Virus record (IMG/VR): IMGVR_UViG_2923360383_000002
DNA: 35,428 bases
Strand: one strand, 5' to 3'
Source: a virus
Lineage: Duplodnaviria > Heunggongvirae > Uroviricota > Caudoviricetes
This document shows, piece by piece, positions 3,368 to 28,653 of the stretch. Position 1 is the stretch's first letter. Each line of letters begins with the position of its first letter. The notes beneath the pieces were generated by a model that saw only the letters and a list, made by a program, of their open reading frames with translations, was not told the origin of the DNA and made no database searches. A program made the position numbers and the translations under genes.

Positions 3368-6300
3368 TCAGCTAATCGTGATGCCTGCAGTGGCTTTCTT
3401 CATCACAACAACCAGCAAATCGCTGATACTTGCTGTGGGATACCAGCCATTTACCCACCATGCTGATACAGAAAACTCCAGCGTCATGTGGCCGCGACCA
3501 GCAGGCATATCAATAACACCACTGTAAACCAGCGTATTATCCATCGCGGTACGGTTATAAATTTCAGCACCGTTTTTCTTCACTATCAGGCGGCATGACG
3601 AATAAGTATCGCTGTTCTCCCGCTCATGTCTGGCACCGCTGAAAGCCACCGCCGGAATAACAATCTGCCGGTTAAACGGCTGATCGTCATAAACCCTGAC
3701 GGTAATGGTTCCTGATGGCCAACGCTCCGGTGCACGGGAGTCACGGGGGAAAGCCTTACCCACTGTTTTAACGAGATCGCCTTCAATCTGGTTTGCAGAC
3801 AGTTTCCCTCTGATGACACAGTTCTCGTTAATGGTGACATTATTGAGCGTGCCGGTATTCGCCGTGATGGCTCCACTGATATCCGCATTGCGGGCTGTCA
3901 GCCTGCCATCCGGCGTCAGGGAAAACGTCGGAGGATTGCCGGATGACGTGATGCTCACCGCAAACAGTCGCTTCAGGAACACGTCGTTCATGAACAGCTG
4001 ATTCCCCTGCGCCACAAACAGCGGCGTGGTGTTGCCGTTCTCCGGGGTAATCATCGCGATACGGTCCGCCTGCAGCAGAATACTGCTCAGGGTCTGACCA
4101 TCAACATCCTCAATCCCCGCGCCAATCCCGGCCACATAGGGAATACCGTTTTTTGTTTTCTGCACCTTCAGCATATACATGGCATTCAGCTCATTGCGCG
4201 TGTCTGACTGAACCCGCTGGATTTGCTGTATGGTCACGGCCTGGTCACCCAGCTTTTTATCCGTGGTCGAGGTAATTTCACTCCCTTTTTTATCCACGTA
4301 CTGGCGGACCTGTGCTATCTGTCGGGCGTTTTCTGACTGCCCCTGGCTGACAGTCTGTGAGATTTCACTGCTCACCCGGTCCACTTTCTGGCTCACCTGC
4401 GCGATGGCCAGTGTCTGGTCCTCATTCTTTTTCGCAACCAGCTGCGTGAGGCTGTTTTCCGCCTTCCCGATTTTCCGGGTCACTTCTGCGATATCCGTGT
4501 CCATCCGCTGACGGATGTCTTCTTCCAGTTGCGTGACCTCCGTACGCAGCGCTGAAGCATCAATGCGCTCTTTCAGTGCCTGGCCCAGAAGCGTCTCATC
4601 TATCAGCCCCCGGAAAATTTCCAGATACCCTTCACCATCATTGCTGGGCTGCCCGCTGGCTTCCACAAAAGCAGATTTTCCCACCAGGTTGACGCTTCGC
4701 ACGTAAAACCAGAAATCCGTCCCCGGCTTAATCCGGCTCCCCTGGACAGTCCACTGACTGCCGGTCCCCAGATAACGGGCAGATTTTTCCACCTGTGCCG
4801 TGTTCGTGATGCGTTTTTCTGAGAACCAGAATTCAAACTGTACCGTCGGGTCATACACCGCAAGACGCGGGACCGCCGTTATCTGAAAATACCCCGGCGT
4901 CAGCTCAATCCGAGACGGCGCTGCCGGTGCGGCAATCCGGAACGATACCGATGCCGGATCGCCCTGCTGCCCCCACGCATTTACTGCCCGGACTGTCAGC
5001 GTGTACCGCCCCAGCGCCAGTTGCGTGAAGCGGTATGTGGTTTCCGTCGTCCGGGCCGTGCTGACCAGCCGCTCACTGCCGTCATCCGCTGCCACGGTCA
5101 GGCGAAGCATAAAGCTCACGCCCTTCACCACCTTCGGCGTGTCCCAGCGCGCCAGCACCTGATATTCCCCGCTGTCTGCGGTAACTTCGGCGGTCAGGTG
5201 CTGCACCGCTGGCGGCGTGACACCATTCACCGTGCCGCTCTGGTCGCCGTCAAAGTGCGCCCCGTTATCCACGATGGCCTCTTTTGCCGGTACATGCTGT
5301 ACGGCGGTGATGGCATACGTACCGTCGTCATTCTCACGGATACTCACACAGCGGAACAGGCGCTGGCGCAGCGTCGGCAGCTTCAGCCCCCACACGCTGT
5401 ATCCGGCAACGCCGTCAGGAACACGGCTCACTTTCACCTTCACACCGTCGGTGACGGACTGGACCTCCACGCTCACCGGATTACCCTGCCCGTCAACCAG
5501 GCTTATCAGAGTGGTGCCGGAGGATGGCAGCGTGATTTCACGGTCGAGCGTCAGCGTCCGGGTCTGGCTGTTTACCGCCAGCACGCGCCCGCCGGTGCTG
5601 ATACCGGCATAGTCATCATCGCAGATTTCAATGACATCGCCCGGTACATGGCGAAGCCCTTCGGCACCCACGCTGAAGTCCACGGTCTGCGTTTCCAGCA
5701 GTTCCGTTTTAATCAGCCACAGCCCGGCGCGGTGCGCCTGCCCCCGGCTGGTACAGCCAAAGGCATCCATCTTCGTGACGTTACGACCGTAACGGGCAAT
5801 GGCCTGCGTATCTTCAACAAGCTCTGTCGCCGTCTCCCAGCCGTTATCCGGGTCAATCCAGTTCACCTCAACGGCATTATGGCGGTCCTTCAGGGCGCTG
5901 AAGCTGTAGCGGAACGGCGCGCCATCATCCGGCATCACCACATTACTGCGGTTATAGGTCCACACCTTATCCGACGGTCGGTCCTGCACGAACGTCAGCG
6001 TCTGCCCGTTCCATACCGGCATACAACGCATCGCCGAGCAGAAATCACTGAGAACATCCCACGCCTTACGCTGTGTGGTCAGCCAGGCATTACAGGTGAT
6101 GCGCGGCTCCGTGCCACCAAAGCCATCCGGCACCGACTGGTCGCAATACTGGCCGATGACATACAGCGCCCATTTATCCACATCCGCCGCACCAAGACGT
6201 TTCCCCATGCCGTAGCGCGGATGGGTCAGCATATCCCACAGACACCAGGCCATGTTGTTGCTGTATGCTGGCTTAAACGTTCCGTCCCAGATACCGCTGT

Positions 6301-21781: not shown

Positions 21782-22321
21782 ATGGATATTAAAGATAAAA
21801 TCAATACCATTTTGTTATGTGACATTGCCATCCACCTAGGTATCGAAACTGATATTGATCCACAGCTTGTTAAATATGCTGTGTCATCTGGTAATGATTG
21901 GGTTATCAAGGCCGAATATTCACATTTGGATGTTGACGAACCAAGTAAAGAAGATCGTGATTTTGTTACTGCTGTCTTGAATATGTATCGCGGACTTTCC
22001 AATGCTTTCAGGAAACTTAGTGATGACGAGCAAAAAGAATTAGTCCGTGACCATCATCTAAAAATACATGATGGGGCAATTCAGCTCCCAGGTTTCGACG
22101 GTAATAATGAATGCGATTACTTCAGTATCATTGAGGCATATCAGAAAATTGATCGCTTCCCCGAACAGAAACAGCCCATTGCCAATACTCATTCACGTAC
22201 AGAACATCTCTATAACGCAATGCTTGATGAGTTTAAGAAAATTGACGCTGTAAATCGAAGCTGGGATTTATCGAAGGAAGAACTGGCATCCATTCTTTCC
22301 ACAGCTCCACGCAGTTTCTAA
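21782..22321 (+). CDS. Hypothetical protein, possibly YfbU-family-like; plus-strand cargo gene between lysis and packaging modules
   Basis: ATG with AGAGGG RBS; AT-rich; weak pattern resemblance to YfbU family (recollection only). Confidence 0.4.
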   Translation: MDIKDKINTILLCDIAIHLGIETDIDPQLVKYAVSSGNDWVIKAEYSHLDVDEPSKEDRDFVTAVLNMYRGLSNAFRKLSDDEQKELVRDHHLKIHDGAIQLPGFDGNNECDYFSIIEAYQKIDRFPEQKQPIANTHSRTEHLYNAMLDEFKKIDAVNRSWDLSKEELASILSTAPRSF

Positions 22322-23809: not shown

Positions 23810-24160
23810 TTAAGGTTGTGATTCCGGAGGAGTCTTCAGAGAACCAGTAATTCTTCCTGGTAGCTTTCCTTTGTAGGTTATCCACACATTCTGCGCCTCT
23901 AAAATTACGGGGCGCGTTTCTGGCAACAGCTCGTCCCCTTCACATAACCCGGCAGCAACATCCAGGAAGACCTGTCTGATGCTCCTTCTGGCTGCTGCCT
24001 CATAAAACTCCAGCGCGGCACCTTCAACACGGTCCAGCGAGATGTCCAGGTCAAAAATTTCACCGTCAAAGCGTTTTTTGTCCCGTAACGCTAAAGTTAC
24101 CGTAACTTTATTCTCAAAATTGCGGATCCCTTTCACAATCAGTTCATAGTTTTGAGTCAT
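23810..24160 (-). CDS. Hypothetical protein (116 aa) inserted between holin and endolysin
   Basis: Own GGGGAGAG RBS 4 nt after the holin stop; no recognisable family. Confidence 0.5.
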   Translation of the reverse strand: MTQNYELIVKGIRNFENKVTVTLALRDKKRFDGEIFDLDISLDRVEGAALEFYEAAARRSIRQVFLDVAAGLCEGDELLPETRPVILEAQNVWITYKGKLPGRITGSLKTPPESQP

Positions 24161-24164
24161 TGAA

Positions 24165-24380
24165 TTACTCTCCCCGTGCAGCCTTACGCTTGTCTTCTCT
24201 GATTTTGAAGTACAGATTTGTCAGATAAGTCAGGAAGCCCAGAACCAGACTCCCCAGTACACCAATCGCAGCCCACTGTGACGGACTGACCTGATCAAGC
24301 CACTGTAAAAACCAGTAGCCAGCACTGCCTGCGGAGGTGCCGTAGGCAATGCCCGTTGAAATTTTGTCCATGGATTTCAT
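24165..24380 (-). CDS. Pinholin, phage 21 S-type (class II holin with dual start)
   Basis: [63 protein letters not shown] is essentially the S21 sequence; GGAGGTG RBS. Confidence 0.9.
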
Positions 24381-24671
24381 AGCCTCACCTCCGCAAATAA
24401 CGGATGGCGTAGTTTTACACTGAGAAATGAAAGGGATTTGAAAAGAAAAAACCGCAAAAACGGGCGAAACGATATATACAGTAAGGAAAGCACTCTATCC
24501 AACAAACCACCCACAGTTAATCGGAATAAAAGCAGAGTGCTTATGAATGATCGCCTGCCCGAAGGTTAGTATTTCTGCACAGCAATTTTGCAAAAAAAGC
24601 GATCATTCATAACTTAAACGTCTTTCAGTCACTCCGGGATTTCCCATCATCGCAGACTGAAAGACTCTAAC

Positions 24672-24746
<75 letters not shown>

Positions 24747-24749
24747 ATA

Positions 24750-24825
<76 letters not shown>

Positions 24826-24827
24826 AC

Positions 24828-24904
24828 TGGACCGCCACCGGGGACTCGAACCTCGCACACTCAACTTAAAGGGTTGACGCTCTTTCCTGATGAGCTAGTG
24901 GCGG
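24828..24904 (-). tRNA. tRNA-like gene; anticodon UUU (Lys) by position, with atypical C33 and mismatches - possibly divergent or a pseudo-tRNA
   Basis: 7-bp acceptor stem (CCGCCAC/GTGGCGG), TTCGAGT T-loop, CCA end; anticodon loop CCTTTAA; T-stem has one mismatch. Confidence 0.45.
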
Positions 24905-24905
24905 T

Positions 24906-24981
24906 TGGTGGCCCTTGCTGGATTTGAACCAGCGACCTGGCGATTATGAGTCGCTCGCTCTCACCACTGAGCTAAAGGGCC
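24906..24981 (-). tRNA. tRNA with CAU anticodon, ileX-like (Ile2 if lysidine-modified, otherwise Met)
   Basis: GGCCCTTTAGCTCAGTGGTGAGAGCGAGCGACTCATAATCGCCAGGTCGCTGGTTCAAATCCAGCAAGGGCCACCA; resembles E. coli ileX more than elongator Met. Confidence 0.8.
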
Positions 24982-24990
24982 GGGCGCAGG

Positions 24991-25019
24991 ATAATAACGT
25001 TACGAAATCAATGTTGCAA
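24991..25019 (-). promoter_or_regulatory. Candidate sigma70 promoter for the tRNA cluster
   Basis: On the minus strand, TTGCAA, 17-nt spacer, TATTAT, ending about 9 nt before the first tRNA 5' end. Confidence 0.4.
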
Positions 25020-25277
25020 GCATTCAAAAATCACCTGGTTAAAAATCACCCTTACCTCCTCCACCAGCGCATTCACCATAATTATCAGAGATAAACGACA
25101 AAAAAACGCACGGCAGCGGTTTTAAGCTGTATGCCGAAGTGACCACTCTTAACACAATAAACAAGAAAATGCGGACCGCGTTAGTGATTTTATCTTCTTT
25201 TCTAGGTAAATTAAGTCTCTACAAATTTAGCCATCAACAAGATATGCATTAATCAATGAGGCATAGCAAGGACCGTC

Positions 25278-26159
25278 ATGGAGAAGTCAACTTCCTTTAA
25301 GGTGTTTTATGACGCCAATGATAAAGAATTGTCAAAGCATGCTATTGACGCTGAAACACTTGGTAAATCAATACTTTCCATGACAACTCTTATTAATAAA
25401 GCTGATAGCTTGTTAAATGAGGGCAACAAATCTGTAAAAATTTTAGTCACTGCCCCCATCCAGAAAGGATCTGTGGGTATTGCATATACTGTAGTGCAAC
25501 TCCTACCGCATGCAATTGACGTTCTGCAAACTATCGGGATTGTTGGAACTGTGGGCGCAACAGCTCATGCCACCGCTTTATCGTTAATAAGACAATTAGG
25601 CTCAAAAAAAGTTGTTTCGATTACCAAAAAAGCAGGAACAGATAAGGCTGTTCTTGAATTTGAAGATGGTGAGATTGAATGCTCATCAGCAGTTGCAACC
25701 TTGGTAACTGAGCCAACAATTCGGGATGCGTTGATTTCTGTTGTTCAGGCTCCTTTAGATGGTAAAGACTCTCCCATTTTTAAAATTGTAGATGAGAATG
25801 ATAAAGTTTTGCTCAAGCTTGAAGGAGAGCAAACTGAAGAGATTAAACCCCTTCCCAGAGGGACGCTTTTGACCAAAACAGTTGAAGAAAAAGAGGTTAA
25901 TGTAAAATTTACCCAAGTTAACTTTCATAGTGAGAAGGGGTGGAGGATGGACTACAACCAAGATGAGCACTCCGTACTACTTACAGACTATGAGTTTTTA
26001 GCTAAAGTAAGGCAAGCAGAGGGAACGATCACTAGTGAAGATATGTTTTCTGTGCTTCTAGAAACAACACGTACAACTTCCGCACGAGGACAAACAGAAA
26101 AGTATGTTATCAAGAAAGTACTTCGTCATCGCGTGATTCAAGGGAAAAAATTGATCTAG
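25278..26159 (+). CDS. Hypothetical soluble protein (293 aa), first gene of the plus-strand cargo operon
   Basis: ATG with AAGGA RBS; AT-rich codon usage unlike flanking phage genes; no Walker or other motif recognised. Confidence 0.6.
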   Translation: MEKSTSFKVFYDANDKELSKHAIDAETLGKSILSMTTLINKADSLLNEGNKSVKILVTAPIQKGSVGIAYTVVQLLPHAIDVLQTIGIVGTVGATAHATALSLIRQLGSKKVVSITKKAGTDKAVLEFEDGEIECSSAVATLVTEPTIRDALISVVQAPLDGKDSPIFKIVDENDKVLLKLEGEQTEEIKPLPRGTLLTKTVEEKEVNVKFTQVNFHSEKGWRMDYNQDEHSVLLTDYEFLAKVRQAEGTITSEDMFSVLLETTRTTSARGQTEKYVIKKVLRHRVIQGKKLI

Positions 26160-26174
26160 CTTTGGTAGAAACTA

Positions 26175-26438
26175 ATGATTCAGCAACAGCTTTTACAAAT
26201 CGTTTTTTGGTTGGGGGTGCTTGTAAGTCTCCCGACCTTCTATCGCTTTGTTTATGCTGGTTCCGCGTTGTTGTGGCGTAAAATTTTTCCTACAAAAATC
26301 GTAGAACTAAGGTTTTACAGTGCTGAACGCATGCTTGAAAAAACGATTACTATCCACTTAGATGCTAAAGATGGAAAGAAGATCGTTGAGCTAATTGATG
26401 ATGCAACCGCGCACAGGCAGTCAAATAATGAGCGGTGA
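26175..26438 (+). CDS. Hypothetical small membrane protein (87 aa, one N-terminal hydrophobic helix)
   Basis: Starts 16 nt after the ORF A stop; hydrophobic segment LLQIVFWLGVLVSLPTFY. Confidence 0.5.
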   Translation: MIQQQLLQIVFWLGVLVSLPTFYRFVYAGSALLWRKIFPTKIVELRFYSAERMLEKTITIHLDAKDGKKIVELIDDATAHRQSNNER

Positions 26439-26826
26439 TAAAAAAAGCATTTTAAGTAGTAATTCTGGTCTAACAACAGGCGGGATTGGCGCAGTTCTAA
26501 CTACATTGGTACCACTATTGGCGCCTGACCCTAATAGTGAATGGAGAGCTTTTTTGTATGCCCTCGCCCCATTAGTGTCAGCAATGCTAACCTACATTAT
26601 GTTGTATGTTATCAATCGACATGGACTTGAGTCTCCAGCCGAAGCCGCCCTAAGAAATCGCCTTGAGCGAGATTTAAAAGGTATTGATGAGCAACTGAAA
26701 AGCCCTCATCTAAGCGAGAAATTTAAAGCTGAGCTTATTGCTGATCGGGAAGAAACTGTTAGAAAGATTGTTAACATTGGTAAGAATGTAGAAGTTTTAC
26801 CTATTGAAGTTACTAAAGAAGAATAA
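26398..26826 (+). CDS. Hypothetical membrane protein (about 132-142 aa, two hydrophobic helices plus charged C-terminal region)
   Basis: Overlaps the ORF B 3' end (alternative starts ATG 26398 or ATG 26428); hydrophobic segments GIGAVLTTLVPLLAP and AFLYALAPLVSAMLTYIMLYVI. Confidence 0.5.
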   Translation: MMQPRTGSQIMSGDKKSILSSNSGLTTGGIGAVLTTLVPLLAPDPNSEWRAFLYALAPLVSAMLTYIMLYVINRHGLESPAEAALRNRLERDLKGIDEQLKSPHLSEKFKAELIADREETVRKIVNIGKNVEVLPIEVTKEE

Positions 26827-26845
26827 AACGGCCCTTAGGCCGTTT
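26825..26845. terminator. Hairpin between the convergent plus-strand operon and the Q gene (likely bidirectional terminator)
   Basis: AAAACGGCC-ctta-GGCCGTTT; T-rich on the minus-strand side (TTTTATTCTTC). Confidence 0.55.
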
Positions 26846-26861
26846 AGAATATTCAAGAGGT

Positions 26862-27230
26862 TCACAATTCCATCTCGAGACGAACATCAAGCATTGAGAG
26901 ACAGCCATCGATAAAGCCCTCTGCCATCTGGATCTCTATCCGTATCAATTTCTCATCTTTTTTACGTGCCTTTGCAATCTTCCGTTTCGAGATGCCGTAT
27001 AGGTAATGAGCCACAATCAGAGAATGTTCGTACGGTTTTTTCTTTTTTAGTAAAGCAAGGCAGCTCTCAATGATAAGAGCGTCATCGTCTGTACAAGAAA
27101 TTCGTGTTTTACTTATCTGCGGCATAAGCCCCTTAAAACCAGCTGCTATAGGTGAATAGTCTACCCCAGAGCTATCACTCGCAGCCCATGCCCCCCACCG
27201 CTCAAGAACCATCTGAATATCACGCACCAT
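26862..27230 (-). CDS. Late-gene antiterminator Q (DLP12 QuuD-like family)
   Basis: MVRDIQMVLERWGAWAA...IAAGFKGL...AEGFIDGCLSMLDVRLEMEL resembles the QuuD-type Q protein as I recall it. Confidence 0.8.
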   Translation of the reverse strand: MVRDIQMVLERWGAWAASDSSGVDYSPIAAGFKGLMPQISKTRISCTDDDALIIESCLALLKKKKPYEHSLIVAHYLYGISKRKIAKARKKDEKLIRIEIQMAEGFIDGCLSMLDVRLEMEL

Positions 27231-27591
27231 CTTTACTATCTCTTATTACGTAAATCTTCACGCCCAACCGACCACCAGGAACGAGCTGACCGCGCACAAT
27301 ATTGATTTCATCAAACTGCTCGTCGTCTATAAGTAGTCCGGCATGCGTCAGCGCATCCAGTGGTGCTTTCAGGATATTGTCCAGGTCACGACGGCGCTTA
27401 TCCGGTGGCTCTGCAATCACCTTTATCGCCAGCCTTCCGGACAGGTTTGATTTTAACCGCTGCCGGCGAACAATTAGCGCCACATCACGGCGATAACGCT
27501 CACCGACTTTTGATACAAAATATGTGTTGCCACGACGTCGCCAGTAAGTATTCACCGTCGGCGGATAAGGCAAAACAAACTCAATACGCAT
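27220..27591 (-). CDS. rusA: Holliday junction resolvase RusA
   Basis: RusA-like motifs (RRRDLDNILKAPLDALTHAGLLIDDEQ); start taken at ATG 27591 with AAGAGG RBS. Confidence 0.85.
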   Translation of the reverse strand: MRIEFVLPYPPTVNTYWRRRGNTYFVSKVGERYRRDVALIVRRQRLKSNLSGRLAIKVIAEPPDKRRRDLDNILKAPLDALTHAGLLIDDEQFDEINIVRGQLVPGGRLGVKIYVIRDSKDGA

Positions 27592-27603
27592 CAATAACCT
27601 CTT

Positions 27604-28653
27604 TTACCCAAGCACGCCGGTTGCAAAGGCGTGATCAAGAAAACGAAAAATTAAATCAACCTGGGAACCATGCTTTTCTTCGAACGCCAGCGGATCCGCA
27701 TGAAGTTCGTTGTGATGTTCCCGGCACAACGGTAGCGTGAAAATATCGTGGGCCTTTGTTCCCATCCCTCCCTGACCGTGACCAATCAGGTGATGGGGAT
27801 CGTCGGCTGGCTGACCACAACACGCACACGGCTGTGTCTTCACCCAGCGCGTATATTTCTCATTTACCCAACGGCGACGTTTAGGTCGCCTCATGAAAGA
27901 TTCCGGAGAGTCCGGATCAACGGCAATGCTGACCACCGCCTTTTCCAGTGGTGGGTTCTGTTGCTGGTGGAAGTGAGGCAACGGCGCAAGATTTTTTGTG
28001 CGCTGCTTTAGTATGCTGGTGGCGGTCTGCTCTCCCGGTACGATGTCGCTTTCGCGGTACACCGCGCGGATTTTTTCCGCACGTAACCCCAGAGAACGAC
28101 GTAATACTGCCTCCGGAAGCGCGTCCGCCACTTGATTGCAGACCGCCCACCAGGATAATTCAGCCAGCGATAACTCCCGCTCCTGCGTGCCATTCATTGC
28201 ATGGCGTATGACGTCAATCATCCATGCTGCCAGGTTTTGTTGAGCAAGTTGCTCAAGTGATTCGGATGTCTGGTCACGCAGCTGGTTATCGCAGTGCCAG
28301 CACAACACCATCGCGCCGGTGCCGTAACGATGTATGACGGTTTCACTGTGATGATAGTCACCATGAGGCCACTGGCAGGATTTGACATGACGCAACAGCC
28401 AGCCAGACAGTGCACCAGCGCCGCCAGCAGCACGAATCACACGCTCATTGCTGAAAAACCGCAGTAATGATTTATCCTCCGCCAGCGGCTGGCGAACGGC
28501 AGGGACGATGCCGGACGGCAGACCACGCATGCTTTTCGGTTCCGGCTCCACCAGCACTCGAGGGTTATGGAATACCTGCATGGATTCACGGCCTGGTTTA
28601 AGGACCACCAGCCCAAGTTCCGGTACCGGAACAGGTCGAAGTAATACCCGCAC
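27604..28653 (-). CDS. DUF968-type protein (Qin YdfU-like) with C-terminal Cys/His HNH-like motif
   Basis: 349 aa; C-terminal QPCACCG...HHLIGHGQGG...CREHHNELH; GTG start with GGAGGT RBS; position upstream of rusA as in Qin/DLP12. Confidence 0.6.
   Translation of the reverse strand: MRVLLRPVPVPELGLVVLKPGRESMQVFHNPRVLVEPEPKSMRGLPSGIVPAVRQPLAEDKSLLRFFSNERVIRAAGGAGALSGWLLRHVKSCQWPHGDYHHSETVIHRYGTGAMVLCWHCDNQLRDQTSESLEQLAQQNLAAWMIDVIRHAMNGTQERELSLAELSWWAVCNQVADALPEAVLRRSLGLRAEKIRAVYRESDIVPGEQTATSILKQRTKNLAPLPHFHQQQNPPLEKAVVSIAVDPDSPESFMRRPKRRRWVNEKYTRWVKTQPCACCGQPADDPHHLIGHGQGGMGTKAHDIFTLPLCREHHNELHADPLAFEEKHGSQVDLIFRFLDHAFATGVLG

Follow-up and report, generated by a model that had tools for sequence, protein, structure and literature searches.

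In lambda, the antiterminator gene Q sits next to pR', the late promoter on which Q acts, and a locus in which the two are pulled apart raises the question of where late transcription begins. We examined such a locus in IMGVR_UViG_2923360383_000002, a 35,428-nucleotide (nt) stretch of a Caudoviricetes virus (the window; its coordinates are used throughout, and its late genes lie on the minus strand). Read from high to low coordinates, this strand carries a DUF968 gene (27604–28653), rusA (27220–27594) and Q (26862–27230), after which come a 35-nt spacer (26827–26861), an island of three plus-strand open reading frames (ORFs; 25278–26826, 1.55 kb) and a 296-nt non-coding stretch. Further left are four tRNA genes (24672–24981), a 291-nt spacer and the lysis genes, namely an S21-type holin, a YdfR-like gene, a SAR endolysin and Rz.

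The first-pass annotation of this DNA stated that the 35 nt past the Q stop hold only a hairpin, followed by antisense cargo, and this is indeed what we find. The hairpin is the sole feature of the spacer, with the U-rich sequence UUUUAUUCUUCUUU after it on the minus strand. We estimate with a probability of about 0.85 that the late genes are served by a Q-dependent late promoter cassette (pR', a Q-recognition site, a short leader and the terminator tR') predicted on the minus strand at ~25197–25100, between the island and the tRNA genes, with its start at or next to A25147. The predicted start is 1714 nt from the Q stop, far beyond the <~100 nt of lambda-type adjacency. It falls inside 24985–25277, which is one of the two places where the first-pass annotation had supposed that a promoter might lie.

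A conserved module beyond the island

Phages 689R5, 606R7 and PPompW have the lysis genes and tRNA leader of the window, but their Q, 229 aa long, belongs to the unrelated Q82 family (PF06323). It lies ~195 nt from the first tRNA, and these phages match the window only from ~25095 downward, past a U-run. E. coli 537-20, with a Q of PF06530 and an antisense island unlike that of the window, has a further block upstream of the U-run in common with the window. A search with 25095–25290 found this block in SfIV, cdtI, Stx2a_1447, mEp390, ev243 and 434B, always 1.5–2.9 kb past a PF06530 Q and behind antisense genes, and in H-19B and Sakai Sp5 the block begins ~20 nt past the Q stop. PF06530 is the Q21 family (PMC9388147); QuuD and the Q proteins of phage 21, Sp5 and 537-20 all match this model. 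The part of the window common to SfIV, cdtI, DLP12/434B and E. coli 537-20 spans 25095–25201.

We surveyed 240 viral loci that encode relatives of three Q clades. With the window and the loci from the preceding comparisons added, 229 loci had both Q and the module. Across all clades, the module is 0.7–3 kb from Q in 209 of the 229 loci, almost always behind antisense cargo, and adjacent to Q in 20. The window's own clade (clade A; Q 62–100% identical) has the module in 79 of 83 loci, in ~60 distinct versions, placed 14–44 nt past Q in 15 loci and 725–2569 nt past it in 64. The gap in clade A is filled almost only by antisense ORFs, from at least 14 unrelated cassettes, and the interval between Q and pR' is a hot spot for cargo, among it porins, defence candidates and unknown genes. 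The block is homologous between these phages and strictly linked to the Q clade, while its distance from Q varies. The split layout is the common state of this phage group and a known arrangement, of which the window is a further instance, real but ordinary. Alignment with QuuD-type phages, proposed in the first-pass annotation as a check, located the Q-linked module and settled the promoter question. Overall, the original observation was correct, and on the sequence evidence we have good confidence that homology answers the question it raised.

Architecture of the predicted promoter

The consensus of the clade A modules reads ....aaaAaAtca.Ta.cGCGGTCCGCA.....t...ttA.t.TGtTAAG from −50 to −1 and AGTGGTtaCT.cGcCAC..a.cTtAaac from +1 to +30. 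Within the predicted −10 hexamer, at least 90% of versions keep A−11 and T−7 and at least 60% keep T−12, while the inner bases vary; as a comparative profile, this is the pattern expected of a working −10. The block TGtTAAGAGTGGT at −7 to +6, which includes the predicted start, is identical in all four Q clades, and may be a sigma-dependent pause or Q-loading region that serves polymerase or sigma rather than Q specificity. Further upstream, the A-rich tract ATAAAATCA at −46 to −38 is a possible proximal subsite of an UP element, for which the consensus is AAAAAARNR. In place of a −35 hexamer, the window has the palindrome GCGGTCCGC at −32 to −24.

A 41-aa ORF (25039–25164, minus strand) overlaps the pR' leader. 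In E. coli 537-20, the counterpart (L003:2547–2657, 36 aa) is labelled 'antiterminator' in RefSeq (WP_086259018.1), which looks like a spurious call on a regulatory RNA region.

We predict the start site by homology to Sakai Sp5. For Sp5 and Sp15, pR' was mapped by differential RNA sequencing, which also gave a separate primary start for the promoter driving the downstream tRNAs; Term-seq placed a 3' end at tR', 258 nt downstream of the pR' start, and RNase E cuts within GUAUU, between GU and AUU, at +173 (Sy et al. 2020, PMC7547250). In the Sp5 stretch that we analysed (L010), the only GUAUU (917–921) and the tR' U-run (998–1003) both place +1 at A746. This base sits in tatcatgataagAGTGG, 7 nt past TATCAT, and the homologous base of the window is A25147. 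The promoter scan found TTTACG-16-TATCAT (L010 712–739) as the only plus-strand promoter match there. Directly before ileZ, Sp5 carries TTGCAG-17-TATTAT, the counterpart of the element TTGCAA-17-TATTAT in the window; we equate the Sp5 element with the published tRNA promoter by its position before ileZ, not by a published coordinate. Also present in Sp5, at L010:769–796 (~ +24 to +51), is a hairpin with seven U that looks like a canonical terminator, though the published 3' end is at +258, and it may be that RNAs of ~50 nt ending at this first terminator-like site escaped the libraries.

A palindrome that tracks the Q clade

The element at −34 to −21 tracks the Q clade in 222 loci, which are not independent samples, with zero cross-pairings despite the variable cargo between Q and the module. 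GCGGTCCGC is invariant in all 79 loci of the window's clade, and the corresponding palindromes are GCGTACGC in the 537-20 clade (65 loci), TTTACGTACGTAAA in the QuuD clade (76 loci) and TTTACGATCGTAAA in the Q933/H-19B clade (2 loci). The sites of QuuD and Q933, two proteins with 79% identity, are the same except for the two central bases. In the window's clade, positions −22 to −14 vary around an invariant −32 to −24, and the tandem direct 8-bp subsites seen in phage 21 do not occur. These comparisons point to the palindrome centred at −28 as the best candidate for the Q-binding element (QBE).

Q itself varies by clade in step with the palindromes at residues ~79–110 (alignment columns ~80–112), where the segment is KKDEKLIRIEIQ in the window's clade, RCSDGTIRKELQ in that of 537-20, CCSDGYIGKRLQ in QuuD and GCSDTCIGKRLH in Q933. 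QuuD and Q933, whose sites are nearly identical, have IGKRL in common. This is likely the segment that reads DNA.

We tentatively propose that short Q21-family Q proteins (116–144 aa) read the clade palindrome at −28 as a symmetric dimer, unlike the tandem direct repeats of Q21, and that in the window's clade, where the palindrome replaces the −35, Q may be needed for initiation at pR' besides antitermination. We consider this proposal possible but more doubtful than probable. If true, a need for Q at initiation would account for a prophage that tolerates a near-absent tR' hairpin. The four natural pairs of Q and site could be used for testing Q specificity. A scan had flagged the palindrome as a plus-strand terminator, which we rejected, as its stems are just 4 bp long, or are AT-rich in other clades. 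We also took a one-mismatch second copy of the core, near 25383–25392 in island ORF1, as chance; it has none of the flanking signature.

The leader and its degenerate terminator

A hairpin and U-run at ~ +27 to +50 are found in 90 of 113 distinct modules, with stem sequences that differ between them, and the median hairpin energy is −9.6 kcal/mol over all 113 (the 23 without a detected hairpin being scored zero). The tR' hairpin of the window is the weakest of the 90 that adjoin a U-run. Its whole leader folds at −9.2 kcal/mol (z +0.76), no better than shuffles, compared to −21.9 kcal/mol (z −3.7) for Sp5. At the 5' end of the leader, a stem of +2 to +6 with +13 to +17 is almost invariant across modules. 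The rare changes break pairs, so that the 5' stem shows no covariation for or against an RNA structure; one pair, G5/G14, is broken in the window. In 19 complete E. coli genomes with an intact-looking late operon, the degenerate tR' variant is fixed. E. coli strains 94EC and E10 match the window at 100% in this region.

Several points weigh against our placement of pR'. The window has no recognisable −35 hexamer (AACGCG stands at 17 bp). For want of it, the consensus promoter scan misses the pR' module, so that the identification rests on homology. The start site is likewise carried over from Sp5, where +1 had to be derived from distances, as the published coordinates refer to NC_002695.1 and the sequence that we analysed is version.2. 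Q21 binds direct repeats at −27 to −12 rather than a palindrome at −32 to −24. Past +1, no −10-like pause element with a T in sixth place is clearly conserved in the window's clade: TAAGAG/AAGAGT at −4 to +3 is invariant, and the window reads TCACTT/CACTTC where Sp5 has TACATT (+7 to +12). Finally, the tR' hairpin is nearly gone in this prophage, which leaves it unclear what Q antiterminates there.

Other possible origins of late transcription

The weak terminator could mean that the module is an ancestral pR' decaying in the prophage, with late genes that are no longer under proper Q control, or that depend mostly on the tRNA promoter or on read-through. A terminator stem down to 3 bp, a leader fold no better than shuffles and the broken G5/G14 pair all fit decay. 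However, the palindrome, the −10 signature and the −7 to +6 block are all intact, and it is the clade as a whole, rather than this copy alone, that lacks a −35. A 3.2-kb stretch containing the same variant also recurs at 98–100% identity in the 19 complete E. coli genomes, with the variant in 2 viral contigs as well, and the late operon of the window keeps long intact ORFs, including those for terminase, portal, capsid, tape-measure and J-like proteins. We therefore regard decay as unlikely, though it is the least unlikely of the alternatives.

The first-pass annotation had named two promoter-like elements as candidates for the late promoter. A scan of 24000–27400 gives 3 promoter-like sites compared to 5.4 ± 2.7 in shuffles, and as consensus matches neither element is beyond chance. 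TTGCAA-17-TATTAT (25019–24991) precedes the late genes and is the best minus-strand match in the interval (9/12), but it lies downstream of the tR'-like U-run, and its Sp5 counterpart likewise stands beyond tR' as a separate tRNA promoter. Because it is identical in the phages with an unrelated Q82-family Q, it does not track Q, and there is no terminator between it and the tRNA genes. It is very improbable as a Q-dependent late promoter, and we list it as the tRNA promoter. TTGGAT-18-TATATA (24502–24473) is also present, 93 nt upstream of the holin start codon, but it has an 18-bp spacer and falls within a predicted strong RNA hairpin, and the scan does not report it because TATATA has no T at position 6, the last of the −10. 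It has no link to Q and no comparative support; DLP12 and SfIV, where the holin directly follows the module, have no equivalent. Its chances as the late promoter are slighter still, and it is possibly a weak constitutive promoter.

Just as improbable is that transcripts from the early promoter, or with a start at or within Q, run antisense through the island into the late genes. In any lambdoid phage, some transcripts of the early operon can be expected to read through at a low level. The 35-nt spacer, however, has no promoter-like match and places a strong hairpin and then UUUUAUUCUUCUUU in the path of such transcripts, and read-through would leave a conserved, Q-linked module beyond the island without a role.

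The tRNA-to-holin spacer bears on how the holin is kept off. A constitutive tRNA promoter lies downstream of tR' in any case, so whatever keeps the holin silent must be located in this spacer, where it would stop transcripts from the tRNA promoter. The spacer folds at −92.7 kcal/mol (z −4.6, 0/200 shuffles) and has 11-bp and 14-bp inverted repeats; the terminator scan found no canonical terminator in it.

A model for Q action across the island

The predicted pR' module most likely works like the cassette of phage 21, because the two have the same architecture. Q would be made from the early operon, in a transcript that would end at the hairpin at 26826–26845, and would diffuse to the cassette at ~25197–25100 to load onto RNA polymerase initiated there. 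It would do so by binding the promoter DNA and loading onto a paused complex that still contains sigma, making polymerase resistant to terminators. The modified polymerase would then read leftward through the weak tR', the tRNA cluster, the structured spacer, the S21-type lysis genes and the ~20-kb structural operon. Driving pR' on a separate replicon with a plasmid-borne Q is standard practice, and the hybrid phage 434B has Q and the module split as in DLP12; Q acts in trans, and distance from its gene is therefore no obstacle.

The island would be a moron, that is, antisense cargo with a PDC-S42 defence candidate inserted between Q and the promoter on which Q acts, at a hot spot of recombination, and the island's transcription would head away from pR'. 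The first-pass annotation expected late and island transcription to collide. This does not hold, as pR' points leftward from 25147 and the island rightward from 25278, so the two are divergent, and the supposed conflict is removed for this prophage. Convergence arises only between the island's transcription and that of the early operon through Q, and the bidirectional hairpin lies between them (−15.1 kcal/mol on the minus and −14.4 kcal/mol on the plus strand; z ~ −4.5 for both, with 0/200 shuffles equally stable). We found no conserved island promoter in the divergent intergenic region among seven loci with the same cassette.

Comparison with known late promoters

In phage 21 (OL657228.1), the −35 is TTGACA, the −10 is AACACT, and QBEu ATTGAGCA and QBEd AATGAGCA occupy −27 to −12. 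A sigma-dependent pause element (SDPE), TAAGCTG, follows at +2 to +8, the terminator ends at ~ +50, and tRNA-Asn begins 5 nt later, ahead of tRNA-Thr and S21. Like the window, phage 21 has a PF06530 Q, a TAAG motif at or near the start site, and the order promoter, start, ~50-nt transcript to a U-run, tRNAs and S21-type pinholin cassette. It differs in that its cassette lies 7 nt past Q, with TTGACA as a perfect −35 and two direct 8-bp repeats as its QBE, whereas that of the window is 1.7 kb from Q and has a clade-specific 9-bp palindrome at −32 to −24 and no −35. The two Q proteins are ~30% identical over 80 residues.

The Stx phages (Sakai Sp5, Sp15, 933W and H-19B) are homologous to the window from −7 to ~ +50, through TGaTAAGAGTGGTTAC, the hairpin and the U-run. 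They also have a palindrome centred at −27.5/−28, a homologous tRNA promoter and an ileZ-type tRNA. Their Q is 144 aa long and ~50% identical to that of the window. In contrast to the window, their module adjoins Q and overlaps its 3' end, the palindrome TTTACGATCGTAAA doubles as a −35, and a second terminator at +258 defines the StxS RNA. The window has the first ~50 nt in common with StxS and then continues into the tRNA leader, with no equivalent of the 200-nt extension or of the 258-nt transcript.

DLP12 of E. coli K-12 (quuD, antisense nmpC, essD) has the same split as the window, where three plus-strand cargo ORFs stand against a minus-strand Q. It has a PF06530 Q, antisense cargo, and a module 169 nt before an S21-type holin, and the hybrid phage 434B carries its quuD-nmpC::IS5-module-essD segment. 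Unlike in the window, the cargo is a porin gene cut by IS5, the palindrome is TTTACGTACGTAAA, there are no tRNA genes, and the hairpin is strong (−11.5 kcal/mol). In a published reporter of the DLP12 lysis operon, the forward primer maps to L009:3183–3202, which gives a '+1' at ~3304, compared to the module start at 3659. The reverse primer was not found in L009, so that the fragment probably holds the module but does not confirm the start site.

Lambda Q-pR'-6S RNA-tR' resembles the window in its constitutive promoter, early termination and loading of Q at a DNA site within the promoter. It differs in having a Q of the unrelated family PF03589, adjacent to pR', and NusA-dependent loading. The lambda leader is 194 nt long.

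For annotation of E. coli and Shigella prophages with a short Q21-family Q, these comparisons suggest that pR' is best sought as the TGtTAAGAGTGGT block after a clade palindrome, often 1–3 kb off behind antisense cargo, and not beside Q. Of these findings, the palindromes as candidate Q-binding elements and the hot spot for cargo merit the attention of specialists.

Features of the region

The features of the Q-to-lysis region are collected in Table 1. The Q protein of the window also matches, distantly, the Q21 chains of PDB entries 6P18 and 6JNX (E 7.6e-5).

Table 1. Features between Q and the holin gene of the window, with coordinates on the whole stretch
Feature	Coordinates	Strand	Basis or remarks
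Q antiterminator gene, 122 aa, Q21 family	26862..27230	-	PF06530, E 5.2e-52, 175 bits vs cutoff 26
Bidirectional terminator hairpin between Q and island	26826..26845	both	terminator scan and folding
Island ORF3, 132 aa from ATG (listed ORF starts at TTG 26395)	26428..26826	+	ORF list; no family match
Island ORF2, 87 aa	26175..26438	+	ORF list; no significant family match
Island ORF1, 293 aa, candidate defence protein	25278..26159	+	PADLOC PDC-S42 4e-27; NCBIfam LAPAL_fam 6e-56; phrog_3243
A-rich tract ATAAAATCA, −46..−38	25185..25193	-	semi-conserved aaaAaAtca, 59-60 distinct modules
Palindrome GCGGTCCGC, −32..−24, candidate Q-binding element in place of −35 hexamer	25171..25179	-	single copy in window
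−10 hexamer TATTGT of predicted pR'	25154..25159	-	aligns with Sp5 TATCAT
Invariant TGtTAAGAGTGGT, −7..+6, with predicted start A25147	25142..25154	-	identical in all four Q clades
Degenerate tR'-type terminator, 3-bp CGC/GCG stem and seven U, +30..+48	25100..25118	-	hairpin energy −2.5 kcal/mol
tRNA promoter TTGCAA-17-TATTAT	24991..25019	-	promoter scan; identical in phages with Q82-family Q
Four tRNA genes (Met/Ile-CAT, Lys, Thr, Gly)	24672..24981	-	ARAGORN and Rfam
tRNA-to-holin spacer, highly structured, holds TTGGAT-18-TATATA at 24502-24473	24381..24671	-	folding; sequence reading
S21-type class II holin, first late protein gene	24165..24380	-	PF04971 at 1.4e-35

In 8 related loci, homologues of island ORF3 are found together with ORF1. 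A permissive Rfam search gave the four tRNAs and nothing else. The tRNA with a CAT anticodon (24906–24981, minus strand) is called tRNA-Met by ARAGORN and tRNA-Ile by RefSeq in relatives, and it bears the name ileZ2 in Sakai; it is probably a lysidine-modified tRNA-Ile2. Further into the late region, Rz and the small terminase gene flank a 179-aa plus-strand ORF (21782–22321), which is antisense to the late operon and possibly a second moron.

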